Position numbers and translations under genes: made by a program. Under the pieces are notes generated by a model, which did no database searches, was not told the origin of the DNA, and was given only the letters and a program-made list of their open reading frames with translations. Below are positions 17,836 to 57,507 of a DNA stretch of 64,000 nucleotides, piece after piece. Source of the stretch: a virus; the IMG/VR virus record IMGVR_UViG_3300038465_000158, positions 1 to 64,000 of that record; one strand, given 5' to 3'. Every line of letters starts with the position of its first letter. Position 1 is the first letter of the stretch.

Positions 17836-18021
17836 ATGTTGAAGAGATTCAAGAAGCAGAAGAGGTACATGGTTATCGTTGACGGTCAGATCGCATCATC
17901 TGACGTTAAAATGACCAAAGGCATGGCAGAGAAGTTGGCGAAGACGGCGCCGTATGGCGCGGACGTCCGAGTCGTTGCCACGCGAGACATGGCGAAAGTC
18001 ATGGGAGCTTTACTCAGCTAG
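17836..18021 (+). CDS. Hypothetical protein
   Basis: AGGGA-TTT-ATG start downstream of promoter. Confidence 0.6.
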   Translation: MLKRFKKQKRYMVIVDGQIASSDVKMTKGMAEKLAKTAPYGADVRVVATRDMAKVMGALLS

Positions 18022-20559: not shown

Positions 20560-21138
20560 ATGGTAATTGACAACGACCTCGAAATCATTGACGCAGAAAT
20601 CGTAGATGATAAGTGTCAAAAAATCATTGGTCGCGGCAAAGGTCATCGATGCGCGACAAGGGCTGTCCCTGGCTACCTTTTCTGCCACAAGCATCTTGCG
20701 AACGCGACGGTCGCTGAGATTGCTCTCGTTCGCAAGAAAGATTTGGGTGAACTCACTTTCGAGGAAATTACTGGTCGAAAGGTCACAAACCCTCTCGAGG
20801 AACTATCTCTTCTTGTCAGTGAAGTCATTCTTTACAAAGACTTCTGCGCGGACCAAGTCGCTCGACTTCATGGTGATTATCGATACGAGGGACGAAGCGG
20901 CGAGCAACTTCGAGCAGAGGTAGCTCTCTACGAGCGAAGTCTAGACCGCGTCGGCAAACTGCTCATCGAATGGTCGCGACTTGACATCGACGAGCGATTG
21001 ACGAAGATTGAAGAGGCGAAGGCCGCAATGCTCCTCGAAGTCATCCGTCGTGTTCTTCTCTCAGCAGAACTCTCTGACGAGCAGAGAGCAAAAGCCGAAG
21101 CTGCAGCGGTGAAAGAGCTGAGGGCCCTTAATCGTTAA
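20560..21138 (+). CDS. Probable terminase small subunit
   Basis: Immediately upstream of TerL; N-terminal C..C..C..H finger, GEQLRAEV.LYER.LDR helical region. Confidence 0.65.
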   Translation: MVIDNDLEIIDAEIVDDKCQKIIGRGKGHRCATRAVPGYLFCHKHLANATVAEIALVRKKDLGELTFEEITGRKVTNPLEELSLLVSEVILYKDFCADQVARLHGDYRYEGRSGEQLRAEVALYERSLDRVGKLLIEWSRLDIDERLTKIEEAKAAMLLEVIRRVLLSAELSDEQRAKAEAAAVKELRALNR

Positions 21139-49693: not shown

Positions 49694-51919
49694 ATGGACG
49701 CTGAACTCGAATATTTTCTTGCAATAGCGAATCGAAAGAGAATTCCAGTTGCTCGTATCGGAATCAGTGGCGAGTTTCTTGTCACTGAAAGCCAAACTAA
49801 TATTGGAATAGCAAACATAGATGCAGCTCTCGGCTCTTCAACAGCGCTCGTGACAACAGTTGCTCCGCATGGAATCGCAGTTGGTGAGATTATGACTATT
49901 GAGAACAATCTCACTGAGTCTGCAATCACGACGATCACTGGTGATGGAACGACGGCAACAGTTGCATGCGCTCAACCGCATGCTCTTGTCGACCAAGGAA
50001 CTGTTGTCATCGCGAACAACACTGCAGTATTCACTGATGCTGACGCAACTGGCGACGGTTCAACTGCGACAATTGTCACAACTGAACCGCATGGATTCGC
50101 GGATAGTGCGAGTATCGACATCGGATACACTGTTGCTGGTGTGCCTTCTTCCATCACTGTTGGTATCTCGTCTGTCACTGCTGACGGCACAACTGCGACC
50201 GTTGTGACGACTTCTCCGCATACGTTCATCGATGGTCAAAATGTAACTATCAGTGTTCCGGCTGGTGACGGTTCGATTGCTCAAATTTACTCGAATTCGC
50301 CGACGAGCGGAAACTCTGAAGTGTACTCTCCGAACTTGCCGAACATCGGAGATTCAGTCACGATTACTGGCAATGGATTCGATGCAAGTCTTCTTTCGCC
50401 GACGTTGCATGCCGCAATAGTTACTGGTAACGGAACAACCGCGACAGCTATTACTTCATACGGAACGCTTCCTCCAGAGTTTACTTCTGGAACAAACATT
50501 GAACTCACTGGACTTCGCGCGCACGGCACGATGGTTCAAATTGCTTCGTCTGGGACAACAGTTTCAGTTCTTACATTTACAGCGCATAGTCTTGCTGTCG
50601 GCAGCAGCGTCACACTTCATGGAATCACTGGCCCAACATCGCAGACACGATTCAACGGCACGTGGACTGTTGCTTCAGTTCCGAATCCTGGCGAATTTAC
50701 GTTCACTGCGCCATTCAGTTCATCAATCACGTTCAATCCTTCGCCAGCGACATGGAACGGGGTTTCTGGTTTTAATGGTTCGTGGGTGATTTCTAGCATT
50801 GGGTCAATCACTGTTAGTTCACACGTCTATAAAACAGTTTCATTCGCAAATAGCGTCAATGTGACTACAGCTGGAACGCCAACGTATGGGACTGGCGGTG
50901 TTATTACCGCAGTTTCTTCCTACAATACGTCATTTACCGTTAGTGCTCTCGGTGCCGGTTACTTTGTCATTCCGTACGCGTCAGGCGCTGGAGTATCGAT
51001 CTTTTATGGTGGCCAGTGGGAGACTGGGGCAGGTCTTGGAGGAGTTCAAGTCATCACTGCAATCGACGATAGTTTGACATTTGAATATGCCACTATCGTC
51101 ACGTCTTCGTCTACGAGCGGCTACGCAACAGGAACGTCAGGTTTTGACCAGACTGGTGTGACAATCACGTATCAAGATGCGAACACGTTCACGTACTCAT
51201 GTGCTTCAGATACTGCCGGTGTCGCTGTTGCTGGCTACAACGGCTCTGGTCTTTCTGGATTCAATGGCACTCAGATTCCAATTACTTACATTGACGGTCT
51301 AACTTTCTCGTTTCTTAGCGGAACGCAAGCAGTCATCACAGGCGGAAATCTCAATGGCACAAGTGGATTCAATGCATCACCAGTAACTGTGTTGACGGTG
51401 CCATCATCGACGACCTTCACGTACAAGAATCAACTTGCTGGAGTCGGAGGAACAGCACTTCCGTACGTCTATGGACTTACTTCTGCATCTGGTACCATCA
51501 TCACATTTGACTTGTCGTACGCTGGAGTGACTAAAACGCAATTGTACTGGGACCAACCTGCAGTTTTTTCAACAAACGGCATGGTGGCAAGTTCTAGCGG
51601 AATCACTGTCCCAATTGCTGGGTACTACAGAATCATCTGTCGTGTTGAACTAAGTGGCGCCGTAAATACGGCATACGCATTCGCAGACATCCTTGTAGAT
51701 GGCGTTCTTACTGCAAGAAGTACGTGCATCAACATGCAAAACCCACCGTCTGAATATTGGAGTGTTCTTGTCTCTGACCTCGTGTACTTAACAGCAAATC
51801 AGACCATTAGCATCTTGGTTACCGCGTTCGCGCCATTGAATAGCGGTCAAATTTATGCATTCGGCTCGGGGTACAGTTTTACGTATTTGGCCGCAATTTA
51901 CATGAGCGCAGGAGCGTAG
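49694..51919 (+). CDS. Tail fibre with FCCH-like repeats inserted in a C1q-like domain (paralog 2)
   Basis: Repeated TA.V.T..PH.L..G..V.I and GFNG...T...F; C-terminal VP.AGYY. Confidence 0.65.
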   Translation: MDAELEYFLAIANRKRIPVARIGISGEFLVTESQTNIGIANIDAALGSSTALVTTVAPHGIAVGEIMTIENNLTESAITTITGDGTTATVACAQPHALVDQGTVVIANNTAVFTDADATGDGSTATIVTTEPHGFADSASIDIGYTVAGVPSSITVGISSVTADGTTATVVTTSPHTFIDGQNVTISVPAGDGSIAQIYSNSPTSGNSEVYSPNLPNIGDSVTITGNGFDASLLSPTLHAAIVTGNGTTATAITSYGTLPPEFTSGTNIELTGLRAHGTMVQIASSGTTVSVLTFTAHSLAVGSSVTLHGITGPTSQTRFNGTWTVASVPNPGEFTFTAPFSSSITFNPSPATWNGVSGFNGSWVISSIGSITVSSHVYKTVSFANSVNVTTAGTPTYGTGGVITAVSSYNTSFTVSALGAGYFVIPYASGAGVSIFYGGQWETGAGLGGVQVITAIDDSLTFEYATIVTSSSTSGYATGTSGFDQTGVTITYQDANTFTYSCASDTAGVAVAGYNGSGLSGFNGTQIPITYIDGLTFSFLSGTQAVITGGNLNGTSGFNASPVTVLTVPSSTTFTYKNQLAGVGGTALPYVYGLTSASGTIITFDLSYAGVTKTQLYWDQPAVFSTNGMVASSSGITVPIAGYYRIICRVELSGAVNTAYAFADILVDGVLTARSTCINMQNPPSEYWSVLVSDLVYLTANQTISILVTAFAPLNSGQIYAFGSGYSFTYLAAIYMSAGA

Positions 51920-52419
51920 TGGATAGCGAACTTCTCTATCTTTTTTCTAAAGTACCGAAGGGACCGCAAACTCTTGCACACCTTTCATGCACGACAGGTT
52001 CGACTCTAGCAAATACTTTCGTTCCATGGGACAATTTCCAAACGCAAAATGTTATCAGCGTAGGATCATATGGAGTAGCAGTAGAAGCTAGTGGCTACTA
52101 TGAAATTAGTAGCATCGTAACATTCAGCGAATCGTTAACTGCCCCGTATGTAAGTCCAACACCACCGACAAATGTACGCCTTTCAATCGCTGTCAATAGC
52201 ACCGTCGTCTCATCTGGACTTGCTGTGACAGCGACTGAAGCGCAATACACTTTAGCTGCAATTGTGACAGACATCATCTATTTGAACTCTGGTGACATCG
52301 TCACGATCAAAGCTGCATATGCAAGCCCTGGCAATGTCTATATCTGGGGAATTCAAGATCCAACAGCAATCACAGGTCTTTTCATGACTTATATGTCAGT
52401 TGTCTATCTAGGAACGTAA
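51919..52419 (+). CDS. C1q-like tail protein (paralog 3)
   Basis: MDSELLYL N-terminus; V.ASGYY; TDIIYL.SGD. Confidence 0.6.
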   Translation: MDSELLYLFSKVPKGPQTLAHLSCTTGSTLANTFVPWDNFQTQNVISVGSYGVAVEASGYYEISSIVTFSESLTAPYVSPTPPTNVRLSIAVNSTVVSSGLAVTATEAQYTLAAIVTDIIYLNSGDIVTIKAAYASPGNVYIWGIQDPTAITGLFMTYMSVVYLGT

Positions 52420-52907
52420 TGACCACGACATCACTCAGCAAGATTCCGAAGACCGAGCAACGCGGCTTGTTCGCTTCATCTAGCGGAAACGATGACGAGG
52501 TTGTCTGGCAACCTGCAGGAATTGGCGTTGGCGGATTCACTTTGGCTCTTCCTTTGCTGTGGGCAGACACAGGAGATCCGCCACGATACTTACTCTCGTT
52601 GTTTGGACCAGCGCCAGTTTCCGTGCCAGTCGGGCCAGGAACTCATGTCCAACTCAGTGAAGTTGTTGCTTGGTCGAAAGATGGCGGAACGCCAGAGTAC
52701 ACGATTAACATCACCCAGAATGGCATCGCAGTGCCCGGTCTTACAAGTATCATTGTTGCGTCTTACAACTCACCAGTTTTCGTACCAATTACACCTGTCA
52801 ATGTCGACAATAATGATGAATTCAATATTGAAATGCTGTACAACAGCAGCGGTGGTTCTCATCATTCGATTATCGTCACTCTCTATCTGACAGTGAGTAC
52901 GGCATGA
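52419..52907 (+). CDS. Tail beta-sandwich protein, triplet copy 1
   Basis: SKIPKT.QRG...GNDDEV.W; NITQNG.A; NNDEFNIE. Confidence 0.7.
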   Translation: MTTTSLSKIPKTEQRGLFASSSGNDDEVVWQPAGIGVGGFTLALPLLWADTGDPPRYLLSLFGPAPVSVPVGPGTHVQLSEVVAWSKDGGTPEYTINITQNGIAVPGLTSIIVASYNSPVFVPITPVNVDNNDEFNIEMLYNSSGGSHHSIIVTLYLTVSTA

Positions 52908-53410
52908 GCGAAAGCAAAATCCCGAAAACTGGCCAACGTGGCTATCTTGCGATGACGACTGGAAATGATGATGAAGTTGCGTGGGTGCCAGCAAGTCTTC
53001 CTAGCAGCGGATTCATAACCCCACTTCCTGTCATATGGGCTGAACTGGATAGTAGCGTCGGAACTGGTGGCCCAGTTTCAGCCTTTGGATACACACCAAG
53101 TTTCATGCCCGTTGGCGCGCAAACTACAGCGCAACTAGTCGAAGCAGTTTGTTGGGCAAAAGATACAGCCACTGACTACTACAATTCGTATGAACTTAAC
53201 ATCACGCAGAATGGTACTGCGATTCCAGCACTGACTAATCTTTGGGTTAGTTACAGCACATCACCAGTTATTACTATTCTTTCGCCGCCAGTAGATGTAG
53301 CAAATAATGATGAATTCAATATTGAAGTGACTCGTAACTGGTTCGGTGGAGGATCGCCGTACACTCCAATTATAGCAACTCTGTACATCAAACTATCGGC
53401 AGTGACATGA
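52904..53410 (+). CDS. Tail beta-sandwich protein, triplet copy 2
   Basis: Same motifs. Confidence 0.7.
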   Translation: MSESKIPKTGQRGYLAMTTGNDDEVAWVPASLPSSGFITPLPVIWAELDSSVGTGGPVSAFGYTPSFMPVGAQTTAQLVEAVCWAKDTATDYYNSYELNITQNGTAIPALTNLWVSYSTSPVITILSPPVDVANNDEFNIEVTRNWFGGGSPYTPIIATLYIKLSAVT

Positions 53411-53919
53411 GCAGAAGCAATATCCCAAAAACTACTCAACGTGGTCTTTTTGTGATGTCCACTGGCAATGACAATGAGGTTGCGCTTGTCCCTGGCAGTC
53501 CAGTTGCTGGCGGAGCGACAATAGCAGTGCCAATTACGTGGGTGCATCCACCAAAATTCGGTGCAGGTCCGTATTCGAACTTTGGACCAACACCAATTTT
53601 CATGCCAGTTGACCCAACAACGAATGTGCAACTTATTGGCGGAATGTTTTGGGCATTAGAGACACTTAGCAGCGGCATTGGAATTCTTGGAACTGAATAC
53701 AATCTCAACATTGATAAAAATGGTAGCGCAATAGCAGGTATGACAAATATTTACGTCACGTATTCAACATCTCCAGTTTTTGCATCAATCGCTCCAATTG
53801 ATACTGCAAATGATGATCAATTTGATATTGAACTAATTGACATGAATGCGCCTGGCACCAACCTGTACGGTGCAACAGTTTCTTGCACTCTTTTCTTCGC
53901 TGTGACAGCATTGACGTAA
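53407..53919 (+). CDS. Tail beta-sandwich protein, triplet copy 3
   Basis: Same motifs. Confidence 0.7.
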   Translation: MSRSNIPKTTQRGLFVMSTGNDNEVALVPGSPVAGGATIAVPITWVHPPKFGAGPYSNFGPTPIFMPVDPTTNVQLIGGMFWALETLSSGIGILGTEYNLNIDKNGSAIAGMTNIYVTYSTSPVFASIAPIDTANDDQFDIELIDMNAPGTNLYGATVSCTLFFAVTALT

Positions 53920-54668
53920 TGGAAATTATCGACACCTTTCATTTCAACAATGAAATTGAACTTCTGGATTTGAGAGTTCACATTCTAGAAGACATCGTCG
54001 ATAAATTCATTGTCAAAGAGGCAGATGAAACGTTCACGAGAAACCCTAAGAAGTGTTTGGCGGCTCTTTACGATCATCCAAAGGTATTCACACATAAAGT
54101 CGAATTACCGGATGGCACACCGTGGGAGAGAGACACGTATCAGAAAACAGCAAAAGTCAATCTCGATGAGTTCGGCATTTCGTCTGACGCTCTCATCATG
54201 ATGAGCGATGTCGATGAGATGCCGAGTGTCGAAGCAATTCATCGAATGACAACGGAACTTAAATATGGAATGCTCTGCAGATTTATGCAGCGACCATTTC
54301 AACGGTTTCTCAATGTCGAACAAATTGGGCAACCGTGGAGTGGCACACGAGTTTGTCTCGCTTCCACATATCATTTGCTCAATGACGGTAATTTCTCGCA
54401 TCATATGCCGGCGTATTCAATCGGTAAGGGCGGTTGGCATTGGTCATTTCTCGGCGATACTGAAATGATTATTGACAAGATCAAGTCATATGGCCACACT
54501 CAATTCAATACACCAGAGACAATTCGACTTATCGACGAACGAGTAGCGAACAGTCAAGATGTTCTCGGTCGCACATTCCGATTTCGTACAGTTGACATTG
54601 ATGAAACCTACCCAGTGTATATACGTGAAAACCAGGATAAATTGCGCCACTTGATCAAGTTAAAATGA
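53919..54668 (+). CDS. Glycosyltransferase, GT17-like
   Basis: ID.F.FNNE.ELL.LR..L...VD.F.+.EA..TF, SDVDE, GGWH.S.+G....I..KI.SY.H. Confidence 0.85.
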   Translation: MEIIDTFHFNNEIELLDLRVHILEDIVDKFIVKEADETFTRNPKKCLAALYDHPKVFTHKVELPDGTPWERDTYQKTAKVNLDEFGISSDALIMMSDVDEMPSVEAIHRMTTELKYGMLCRFMQRPFQRFLNVEQIGQPWSGTRVCLASTYHLLNDGNFSHHMPAYSIGKGGWHWSFLGDTEMIIDKIKSYGHTQFNTPETIRLIDERVANSQDVLGRTFRFRTVDIDETYPVYIRENQDKLRHLIKLK

Positions 54669-54689
54669 TTCCATGACCTGAGGAGGTTT

Positions 54690-56096
54690 ATAGCGACATT
54701 CGATCGGAAGACGGCAGGTGTAGGTGCATTAAATTGGGCAAAACTTCAGAACGGCAAACCGTACATCTGGGGAGGCACCGGACCAGAAGGTTTTGATTGC
54801 TCTGGTCTTACGGAAGAGGCATATCTTCATGTAAATGTCCAACTTCCTCGCACCACGTACGAACAATGCAAATTGTACGTTCTTCCGAAGGACGCAAAGC
54901 TCGAACCTGGAGATTTGCTCTTCATTGCGGGCTCTGACGGCACGGTGGCTGAACCTGGCCATGTAATGATTTTCATCGAAGACGGTTGGGTCTTCCAAGC
55001 GCCGTTTACCGGCGAAGATGTTGGTAAGTACGCGTACGACACGACTCAGTACGACGTCGCAACACGACCAGCTCTTGCGCTGCCTCTACCAGTTGTTCCA
55101 CCAACGGTTGAGCAATTGGCCGCGGCAAAAATGGTGCTTCTTCCAAATCAAGCTGCCGCATTTCTCGCACGGCGAAATGGATGGACTGTTCGCTACTGGA
55201 TTCATCAACAGTTCCTTGCGGCGCCTCCAGGATTTCCAACTACTGGTCTGGCGGAATATGCGAACATTCACTATGAGAGTCCTCGTCCGGCACGGCAAGC
55301 TGGGAAGCGCGGAGTTCGCATCAATGAACTTCATCTTCCGGACCTCGAACTTCACAAATTCAAATCGACTGCACCACTCCCGCCATTACCAACAAGCGGC
55401 GATGTCCGTTGCAGTCTCGAAAACATCGGGATGCTCGGCAATGATGAGTTTGGCGACTGTGGTCCAGCCGCTACCGAGCACATTCGCATGATGCAAGCAG
55501 CAATTTCGACTATTAACGGTCAAACGACGTGGGTTCCTGGGTTCCGAATTCCTCACACCGCGTACACTGAAGGCCTCTATTTTGCGTACGGTCGAGCGAT
55601 GGGAGAAGGCGGTCTTCATCCCGACCAGGGAGTTGCAAATGCAACTTGGTTGCTTTGGCTGTACCAGCACAAAATCATCGAAGGATTTGCTGAAGTCAAC
55701 GTCAATGCATCGTCTGGTCTCATCAATGGCGACAATGCTGCTGCTCGAGCTCATCGTGCGATGATTGAGTTCCAAGGATGTCTCGTTGCCGTCAGTCTCA
55801 CCGATGACGCTGAACAACTGTTCCAGGAAGGTCTTCCTTGGACGACGGCAAACGGCGAAACTCCAGATCCGCAAGAAGGTCATGACATTGCTCTCGGTGC
55901 GTACAGTCCGACAGGAGATACGTTCGGGACTTGGGGCGCATGGGAAGAGTCAACTATTGACTGGGACAACGAATGCATCGGCGAATGCTGGGTCATCGTC
56001 ACCAAGGAACTTGCTGAGCGAAGTGGTTACAATTTCGCTGCTATGACTGCTGTGCTGGATACTCTCGTGGACGCGCATCTTCCGGCTGCGGCGTAA
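54690..56096 (+). CDS. Endolysin: NlpC/P60 domain plus papain-like C-terminal domain (proposed ATA start)
   Basis: GKPYIWGG.GP.GFDCSGL...LPRTT..Q...PGDL.F...GHV; MLGND..GDC...GH.I...Y...TWG. Confidence 0.88.
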   Translation: MATFDRKTAGVGALNWAKLQNGKPYIWGGTGPEGFDCSGLTEEAYLHVNVQLPRTTYEQCKLYVLPKDAKLEPGDLLFIAGSDGTVAEPGHVMIFIEDGWVFQAPFTGEDVGKYAYDTTQYDVATRPALALPLPVVPPTVEQLAAAKMVLLPNQAAAFLARRNGWTVRYWIHQQFLAAPPGFPTTGLAEYANIHYESPRPARQAGKRGVRINELHLPDLELHKFKSTAPLPPLPTSGDVRCSLENIGMLGNDEFGDCGPAATEHIRMMQAAISTINGQTTWVPGFRIPHTAYTEGLYFAYGRAMGEGGLHPDQGVANATWLLWLYQHKIIEGFAEVNVNASSGLINGDNAAARAHRAMIEFQGCLVAVSLTDDAEQLFQEGLPWTTANGETPDPQEGHDIALGAYSPTGDTFGTWGAWEESTIDWDNECIGECWVIVTKELAERSGYNFAAMTAVLDTLVDAHLPAAA

Positions 56097-56105
56097 GGCG
56101 CATCC

Positions 56106-56420
56106 ATGCTCTCAGTTGTCGGACATAATCCTTTCACCAATTGGATTACGTATCTTTCAGCCGTCGTCGGTCTCCTTCTCGGCGTCGGTACACTTTACAT
56201 TCGTGTCATTTACCCAAGAGCTCTAGCGCACAAAGAGCACGAGGCTGAACGTGAAGGCATGCGGAAAGAACTTGATGCGAAGGACGAATTTCATAACGGA
56301 TTTCTAGATGGTGTAGACGAAGTGCCGGGTATGACACTTGCTGTGCCGCCTGCCGCAGTACGAATCAAAGCGCTTGAAGACATGATGCAAACCCTACTCA
56401 AACCCGGACAGGAGATTTAG
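56106..56420 (+). CDS. Lysis-cassette membrane protein
   Basis: One TM helix; FLDG...PG...PPA..R+..LE. Confidence 0.65.
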   Translation: MLSVVGHNPFTNWITYLSAVVGLLLGVGTLYIRVIYPRALAHKEHEAEREGMRKELDAKDEFHNGFLDGVDEVPGMTLAVPPAAVRIKALEDMMQTLLKPGQEI

Positions 56421-56914
56421 TGCTTTTGCATTTAGCGCTTCAAAACAGCAAGATACCAGTTTTCAACTCGGTCCATTTCTGGCAAGGTGTAGTCGGAACA
56501 GTCGCTGTGTTAACTTTCATTGCAGCGTTCCTCGCCAAGCCAATTAAAAGGTGGTACGATAAGAGAAGTCTCGAACGGCAAAGACATGAACTGTTCCTAG
56601 ACGGCATGCCTGGTGTAGAAGGATTCACAAAGCCTATTCCACCGGCGTATGAGCGAATGGGGAATCTCGAAACTGGAATGACAAAAGCGAATTCAACACT
56701 CGAGAATCACGGTGAAATTCTCGAGACTATCGTCAACACACTCATTGGTGTCGCAAGAGCTATTGAAGATGTTGACAGCAAAGTCACGCCGAACGGTGGA
56801 GATACGAACAATCCTGGCGACGTGTTGCAGCGACTCGCAAAAGCAACTGGCGTCTGGGTTGAAGAAAAGAAGATCCCAATAACACGTATCAAAAATGAAA
56901 ACAAAAAATCGTGA
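56420..56914 (+). CDS. Lysis-cassette membrane protein (paralog of previous)
   Basis: One TM helix; same motif; V.PNGG. Confidence 0.65.
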   Translation: MLLHLALQNSKIPVFNSVHFWQGVVGTVAVLTFIAAFLAKPIKRWYDKRSLERQRHELFLDGMPGVEGFTKPIPPAYERMGNLETGMTKANSTLENHGEILETIVNTLIGVARAIEDVDSKVTPNGGDTNNPGDVLQRLAKATGVWVEEKKIPITRIKNENKKS

Positions 56915-57507
56915 GAAAGCAAGCTGTAGTCCCTGAAGCGACCGTTGCAATTTATGACTTTGGCGAGCATTGTGAAACAACTGAAGCCGGGGACATGATT
57001 CTTGTCAAGCATGCGCATATCTCCGCGAAATTGATTCGCTTCGGACAACGAATCAAATATTGGATGCTTCGTGTCATCATGCGGCGAAAGGAGTACGACA
57101 AAGCGTACTGCGAAACGAATCATGCGATGATTGTCGTCGTTGGCGGGAAGGACGCTCTCGTCTCCCAGATGCAACCGTCTGGCGGCGGAGTCATCGTTGG
57201 TCTTCGTCGCTATGCTGATTTGCGATACGCCGTCGTACACCCGACAAAAGCGAATGTTGAACAGCGAGCAAATGCGGCAGCATTCGGTAGATGGGCAGTT
57301 GGTAACAAATATGGCTGGCTCTCAATCGCAACTATGATTGTCGGTGTGTTCATCCCATTTTTCGAAGTCGCGATGAGTATCGGCAACAGCATGGTTTGTT
57401 CGACTGCGTCAACCCTCGCGCACCGCTGCATGGGGTTGATTCCTGACGAGGCAGACACTGGAGTGTTTCCTGCAGATGATGCTCGCTACTACGATGTAAG
57501 GTTGTAA
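56911..57507 (+). CDS. Permuted papain-like NlpC/P60 (YiiX/YaeF-like) hydrolase
   Basis: GD.IL, HA.IV before G.KY..., late +CS catalytic motif. Confidence 0.7.
   Translation: MRKQAVVPEATVAIYDFGEHCETTEAGDMILVKHAHISAKLIRFGQRIKYWMLRVIMRRKEYDKAYCETNHAMIVVVGGKDALVSQMQPSGGGVIVGLRRYADLRYAVVHPTKANVEQRANAAAFGRWAVGNKYGWLSIATMIVGVFIPFFEVAMSIGNSMVCSTASTLAHRCMGLIPDEADTGVFPADDARYYDVRL

Follow-up and report, generated by a model that had tools for sequence, protein, structure and literature searches.

The Escherichia coli genes infC (encoding IF3) and pcnB start at AUU, and both are isolated, weakly translated and autoregulated genes. In E. coli, AUA, AUC, AUU and CUG are the best near-cognate initiators after AUG, GUG and UUG, reaching 0.02-3% of the level obtained with AUG (bioRxiv 10.1101/063800). 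Translation of the tape-measure gene of mycobacteriophage Corndog begins 5' of the first canonical start, at what is probably an ACG, and reaches a normal level; no canonical start lies before the peptides detected by liquid chromatography-tandem mass spectrometry, and close relatives carry ATG at that place (PMC4351075). Near-cognate starts of Deinococcus deserti are known to us as cited in the same paper (PMC4351075). With regard to the context of the codon, initiation is favoured when the base at -1 is a U, which pairs with A37 of tRNAfMet (PMC10018350; Hollerer and Jeschek 2023), and chloroplast work cited there reported that such a U rescued initiation at a weak codon (Esposito et al. 2003, as cited in PMC10018350). 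Here we analysed the first 64 kb (64,000 nucleotides (nt); the window) of a 96,685-bp viral record from an uncultured phage, IMG/VR record IMGVR_UViG_3300038465_000158, in which all genes lie on the + strand, and we focused on the start of its lysin gene. The lysin would very probably be translated from ATA at 54690 into a product of 468 amino acids (aa), as one instance of a near-cognate design that runs through the phage lineage, with virion, lysis and RuvC-like genes predicted to start at CUG, AUC, AUA or AUU behind one signal.

Like infC, pcnB and the near-cognate starts of NCBI table 11, the lysin gene has a Shine-Dalgarno sequence and a start that is one mismatch away from AUG and would be read by the initiator tRNA. 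It differs from infC and pcnB in that eight genes share the device, including those for portal, capsid and tail tube, with a fixed UUU before the codon and a spacing of 3-4 nt. The Corndog gene is likewise a structural gene without a canonical start in an actinobacterial phage; however, it is a single gene whose second-position mismatch (ACG) arose from an HNH insertion, no signal shared with other genes has been described upstream of it, and ribosome bypass may operate there instead. Quadruplet (extended) pairing was studied with reporters and with E. coli genes that start at AUG, where the effect was modest, whereas in this phage the UUU accompanies natural near-cognate starts in an all-or-none manner, with a role that we infer. 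In the literature that we searched, neither a systematic use of near-cognate starts by virion or lysis genes of phages nor an accompanying UUU signal was described. Single near-cognate starts are already known; the UUU rule and a case at the level of catalytic residues are added here.

The features around the start of the lysin gene are listed below; L002 is a relative from a separate metagenome assembly.

53919..54668, + strand: upstream gene, glycosyltransferase family 17-like (GT17; Pfam PF04724, E 1.4e-16; list of open reading frames (ORFs))
54659..54689, + strand: conserved lysin leader, where homology with L002 begins abruptly
54673..54681, + strand: two-codon mini-ORF ATG ACC TGA in the +1 frame, read from the sequence
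54680..54686, + strand: Shine-Dalgarno GAGGAGG, read from the sequence and identical in L002
54687..54689, + strand: TTT at -3 to -1, characteristic of the near-cognate starts of this genome
54690..54692, + strand: ATA, proposed initiation codon, conserved in L002 and fitting the Shine-Dalgarno-TTT-NNN rule
54690..56096, + strand: predicted lysin coding sequence, 468 aa (ORF; L002 aligns over the whole ORF)
54753..55037, + strand: NlpC/P60 (peptidase C40) catalytic domain (Pfam PF00877)
54873..54875, + strand: TTG, first canonical in-frame start, used by gene callers for the 407-aa product P0001; not conserved

The TGA at 54666-54668 is the stop codon of the glycosyltransferase gene and shares its frame with the downstream lysin ORF, which runs to 56096; the first in-frame ATG, GTG or TTG of that ORF is TTG 54873. 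A first-pass annotation of this DNA had given these coordinates, and they hold, as do the positions it gave for CTG 54678, ATA 54690 and AGGAGG (54681-54686). It had also placed the catalytic Cys motif of an NlpC/P60 domain in the interval before the TTG and had proposed a profile search. When the translation from 54669 was searched, PF00877 was matched with 70.6 bits (cut-off 23, E 1.2e-19, profile positions 1-91 of 105); the alignment started at residue 29 of that translation and at profile position 1, and the domain covered residues 22-116 when counted from ATA. The catalytic Cys codon (TGC 54798-54800) lies 25 codons 5' of TTG 54873, as had been claimed for the motif, and this Cys (in DCSG) is part of the product only if translation starts 5' of the TTG. 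A stretch of 68 codons that lacks canonical starts has a probability of ~0.03 and is not rare per se; the weight of the interval comes from the conserved and selected catalytic motif inside it, not from its length.

The L002 sequence matched the lysin ORF over its whole length, from the first residue after the stop (77% by tblastn at the protein level, 79% in the alignment). Homology began abruptly at 54659/54660, ~30 nt before ATA, and ended at the lysin stop codon; 5' of the leader the identity fell to ~40-47%. From 54659 to 54692, that is, from GTTAAAAT through GAGGAGG-TTT-ATA (leader plus ATA), 31 of 34 positions were identical, compared with synonymous sites in the gene that had diverged by 62% (P 1e-10 if neutral). 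The stretch GAGGAGGTTTATA was identical in the window and L002, and a 3-nt in-frame indel occurred right after ATA. GAGGAGG-TTT-ATA is the same in both phages, so that the ATA is present in two independent assemblies. The Shine-Dalgarno sequence stands 3 nt from ATA 54690, which is a working distance; GGAGG with the same 3-nt spacing also precedes ATG 11048 and ATG 79330 of this genome.

In the 59 codons before the TTG (54696-54872), the ratio of nonsynonymous to synonymous substitution (dN/dS) between the window and L002 was 0.094, with a dS of 1.3, matching the value of 0.083 in the next 66 codons. The other two frames of the same interval had dN/dS of 1.4 and 2.1 and look neutral, and differences at the first, second and third codon positions numbered 10, 6 and 25. 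The codons before the TTG are under purifying selection in the lysin frame, and are neither a relic nor an error; the low ratio, seen in this frame alone, indicates that they are translated. The first canonical starts of the two genes are not homologous: TTG 54873 aligns with GTC in L002, and the ATG of L002 aligns with GAA 54813. Among the lysin homologues, P0011, a protein of 570 aa from a Joint Genome Institute (JGI) metagenome, came closest to a canonical start at the homologous codon: its initial Met is 1-2 codons away from the aligned ATA, a codon that L002 shares. The proposal of non-canonical initiation with ATA 54690 as its best candidate is thus supported by the missing canonical start, the dN/dS of the upstream codons and the signal conserved in L002.

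The same signal was found elsewhere in the genome. ORFs were selected in which a Shine-Dalgarno-like run, TTT and the codon followed each other close 3' of an in-frame stop, and in which no canonical start occurred up to and including this codon. Eight ORFs fitted, with CTG in four, ATC in two, and ATA and ATT in one each.

23798, + strand: CTG, portal (PF04860), Shine-Dalgarno-TTT signal
30168, + strand: CTG, ORF, Shine-Dalgarno-TTT signal
32437, + strand: CTG, capsid, Shine-Dalgarno-TTT signal
35101, + strand: ATC, ORF, Shine-Dalgarno-TTT signal
37274, + strand: CTG, tail tube (PF18906), Shine-Dalgarno-TTT signal
54690, + strand: ATA, lysin, Shine-Dalgarno-TTT signal
58216, + strand: ATT, ORF, Shine-Dalgarno-TTT signal
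70680, + strand: ATC, RuvC-like gene (KVVAVDPG) beyond the window, with ATGG-TTT-ATC

The spacing from the Shine-Dalgarno sequence was short (3-4 nt) in this set. All eight codons fell among CTG, ATA, ATC and ATT, for which the chance probability is (4/57)^8 = 6e-10, and these four codons are exactly the second-tier initiators of E. coli. TTT at -3 to -1 was present at 8/8 near-cognate starts and at 0/43 Shine-Dalgarno-led ATG, GTG or TTG starts (Fisher 1.6e-9); TTT-ATG at 17836, a short ORF with a weak GGGA run, is an exception. The Pfam profile of the tail tube begins at residue 10 of the CTG-initiated protein, of which the first ATG is codon 53. The ATC of the RuvC-like gene is three codons before a GTG; of the TTT-type near-cognate starts, it alone falls outside the block of virion and lysis genes. 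A loose scan (Shine-Dalgarno, 2-8 nt, near-cognate codon) was uninformative: it returned 11 matches, and control codon sets averaged 7.7. Significance is confined to the tight signal with TTT. Two ATC candidates without TTT, GAGG-N7-ATC at 21131 before a 505-codon ORF (first ATG 23 codons later) and AGGAG-N7-ATC at genome position 73834, were indistinguishable from background in that scan. In the complete 88-kb relative G001, the signal was found on a portal-size ORF, an ORF in the protease position, the capsid gene and a tail-tube ORF.

More direct evidence came from the capsid gene. The codon directly after the Shine-Dalgarno sequence was compared among capsid orthologues encoded on 18 viral and 7 genome contigs, in which a conserved RYSGASD motif lies 5' of the first ATG. 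This codon was CTG in the window and in L018, L019, L021-26, L043 and L049, ATC in L020 and L034, ATA in L031 and L033, TTG in L027, ATG in L028 and L046, and GTG in L032/L045 and L036. Because the codon changes among CTG, ATC, ATA, TTG, ATG and GTG at one position, the near-cognate codons are, on this comparison, to be read as real start codons that were exchanged with canonical ones during evolution of the lineage. The result carries over to the lysin, since its signal is identical in form and an ATA start is used elsewhere in the family. The first-pass annotation had called the lysin interval the hardest single proof of non-AUG initiation in this DNA; that place belongs rather to the capsid codon series. 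The ATA of L031 and L033 (near 1400-1430) stands in the contexts CAT/ATA and TAT/ATA, and the CTG of L043 and L049 in TTA/CTG and TTC/CTG. Since distant capsid genes have these other contexts, the strict TTT rule is limited to the sub-lineage of the window. Prophage relatives of the capsid were found in Actinomycetota (Arthrobacter, Streptomyces and Actinoallomurus), which points to this phylum as the host range.

In the mechanism that we propose for the lysin, the 30S subunit would bind the strong Shine-Dalgarno sequence GAGGAGG, and three bases 3' of it the formylmethionyl initiator tRNA would pair with AUA, leaving a mismatch at the third position. The UUU at -3 to -1 would extend the pairing, probably to A37 and perhaps to A38 of the initiator anticodon loop, and together with the strong and close Shine-Dalgarno sequence it may offset the mismatch. 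The lysin would be produced in this way, followed by two holin-like membrane proteins. Several points weigh against initiation at ATA. In E. coli, AUA works at only ~0.02-3% of the AUG level (bioRxiv 10.1101/063800), and its efficient use therefore requires a host or context effect. CTG 54678 is as well conserved in L002 as the ATA, though it lies 5' of the Shine-Dalgarno sequence, and the DNA comparison of the lysin was made with a single orthologue, L002. On the other hand, capsid and portal use the device as well, so in the natural host it must be more than a weak start. The hint in the first-pass annotation that a weak codon might serve the timing of lysis found no support for a similar reason, as portal, capsid and tail tube share the signal. 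No IF3_C or IF1 domain was detected in G000 or G001, and no initiator-like tRNA was found, the sole tRNA gene being that for tRNA-Asp.

Other routes to the catalytic motif were weighed against ATA initiation. Non-canonical initiation at CTG 54678 or ACG 54711 is very unlikely. L002 has kept both codons, no near-cognate start is more frequent in this genome than CTG, and ACG is the codon proposed for Corndog; however, the CTG has no Shine-Dalgarno sequence of its own and stands on the wrong side of the one present, the ACG follows it by 24 nt, and neither has TTT before it, unlike the near-cognate starts of the genome. Even less likely is that ribosomes reach ATA by termination and reinitiation, after the glycosyltransferase gene or the mini-ORF, rather than by de novo binding. 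Between 54665 and 54681, overlapping stops and starts (AATGA, CATGA, CTGA) step through all three frames, and the TGA of the mini-ORF overlaps CTG 54678; this cascade would suit reinitiation, as would the retention of the mini-ORF in L002 (as GTG ACC TGA) and a leader far more conserved than neutral sites. Yet in L002 49 nt separate the end of the upstream gene from ATA, and ATA ATT stands in place of the first ATGA; none of the other seven near-cognate genes has a mini-ORF of this kind, and the strong Shine-Dalgarno sequence is enough for de novo initiation.

Less likely again is that synthesis is limited to the 407-aa product of TTG 54873 or to a shorter one, with the upstream codons as a decaying remnant or an assembly error. 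Gene callers do give this product (P0001), and the papain-like domain that forms the C-terminal part of the lysin stands alone in L017/P0004. The upstream codons are nevertheless under selection (dN/dS 0.094, dS 1.3), two independent assemblies retain the complete motif with its catalytic Cys, and the TTG is neither conserved nor led by a Shine-Dalgarno sequence; the short product would moreover retain a useless two-thirds of the NlpC/P60 domain. The least likely of these rivals is a fusion of the glycosyltransferase to the lysin by readthrough of the TGA or by recoding of TGA, which the first-pass annotation had named as one outcome that would refute its own proposal. The two genes do share a frame, in which this TGA is the sole stop between them, but L002 has TAA at that position, and its upstream gene encodes an unrelated protein of 351 aa in another frame; elsewhere in the genome TGA serves genes as a normal stop, and tRNA-Asp is the only tRNA encoded. 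Frameshifting into the lysin frame was rejected as well, as ATG 54665 is not conserved and a start at ATG 54673 needs a -1 or +2 slip without a codon for re-pairing. Non-canonical initiation alone withstood these tests, and initiation at ATA 54690 remains the preferred explanation.

An extension of ATA initiation to gene regulation was also considered, and we regard it as unlikely, albeit less so than the rivals above. Here the Shine-Dalgarno-UUU-near-cognate signal would be a dedicated translational mark of late genes (head, tail, lysis and resolvase), switched by relaxed proofreading of the start codon. The unmodified host apparatus would translate these genes weakly, and they would be turned on when the phage or the state of the infected cell relaxes proofreading, e.g., through loss or modification of IF3. 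If this were true, the ATA of the lysin would tie lysis to the same switch.

At 468 aa, the predicted product is most likely a lysin that combines an NlpC/P60 with a papain-like peptidase domain. Among the 12 homologues in alignment A1 (numbered from 54669), D43, S45, G46 and H98 were invariant, and C44 and Q110 nearly so; the His lies in a PGHV motif, and the Gln of FQAP is the likely third catalytic residue. This domain was closest to actinobacterial and actinophage proteins. P0011, a member of the same alignment, carries a LAGLIDADG-type intein (precomputed PF14528) in its NlpC/P60 motif, at the very junction of the catalytic Cys with the Ser that follows (GFDC / CLVGETLV ... VVHN / SGLT). 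Because the intein splits the catalytic motif, the P0011 lysin would stay inactive until splicing.

55350..56096, + strand: C-terminal papain-like cysteine peptidase domain (AlphaFold model, Foldseek, conserved Cys and His)

The C-terminal 250 residues were modelled by AlphaFold with a predicted local distance difference test (pLDDT) score of 88.6, and the fold of the model is papain-like (clan CA, C1-like). Foldseek matched it to Der p 1 (2as8) and xylellain (3ois) with probability 1.00, E 3e-4 and template modelling (TM) scores of 0.40-0.52, and more weakly to cathepsin L (6jd8; E 1.4e-3). The putative catalytic Cys is encoded at 55458-55460 (in GDCGPAATEH) and the His at 55881-55883; the corresponding C57 and H198 were invariant in the 15 sequences of alignment A5. 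The domain belongs to PHROG 19005, a family of unknown function. No recognisable wall-binding domain was found in the lysin. The protein resembles modular actinophage lysins of the LysA type, which join an N-terminal peptidase to further catalytic domains, in being a multi-domain peptidoglycan hydrolase without a signal peptide, encoded beside small membrane proteins, but differs from them in its second domain, which has a papain-like (C1) fold and belongs to an unnamed family.

Two small genes follow the lysin and are read together with it as a putative lysis cassette.

56106..56420, + strand: small holin-like protein with one hydrophobic span (translation; a similar gene follows the lysin in L002; no family match)
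56420..56914, + strand: second small protein with one hydrophobic span (translation; no family match)

The second protein is paralogous to the first in its central part. The order of lysin and membrane-protein genes is kept in L002 and L017. In L017 (518-3276), separate NlpC/P60-like and papain-like genes flank two small membrane-protein genes, the papain-like domain being the stand-alone protein P0004, which suggests that the lysin of the window was born by fusion or that the L017 arrangement arose by fission. A protein of 198 aa (56911-57507) is encoded after the holin-like genes and has a similar counterpart after the papain-like gene of L017; it had no family match in Pfam or PHROGs. On the other side, four consecutive paralogues of ~165 aa with a shared N-terminal IPKT-QRG motif (51919-53919) lie directly 5' of the GT17 gene, which is itself an unusual neighbour for fibre and lysis genes. 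The best PHROG matches of the N-terminal lysin domain were tail proteins and fibre-like genes flank the cassette, so the lysin may have a virion-associated role.

Searches for further relatives yielded little. No DNA match was found for the lysin region, and no capsid relatives were found among GenBank phages. Ten capsid-related phage records contained no lysin orthologue, and the holin-like gene was absent from the five of them that were searched for it (0/5). Two metagenome scans for further lysin orthologues gave nothing, or short motif matches only. The pattern GDCGPAATEH matched only the L002 contig and L017, and a 19-nt leader pattern matched the L002 contig and an unrelated locus, L016, which was taken as a chance match. 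The leader RNA folded no better than shuffled sequences (z +1.1 to -1.4), and a sigma-70 scan found no promoter in the leader. GTTAAWAT was dropped as a candidate promoter motif, having three copies against 1.9 expected, one of them inside a gene.

Standard gene callers accept only ATG, GTG and TTG, and because of this the lysin is annotated without its catalytic cysteine (P0001, P0002 in the relative, and apparently P0003, a 57%-identical protein called from an internal Met). The callers also truncate portal, capsid and tail-tube genes across this uncultured phage lineage, and the UUU rule could recover near-cognate starts in metagenomic annotation. The fixed UUU before every near-cognate start offers a clean natural test case for extended pairing of the initiator tRNA. 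If the device is specific to late genes and depends on the initiation machinery, it would represent a new layer of temporal control in phages.

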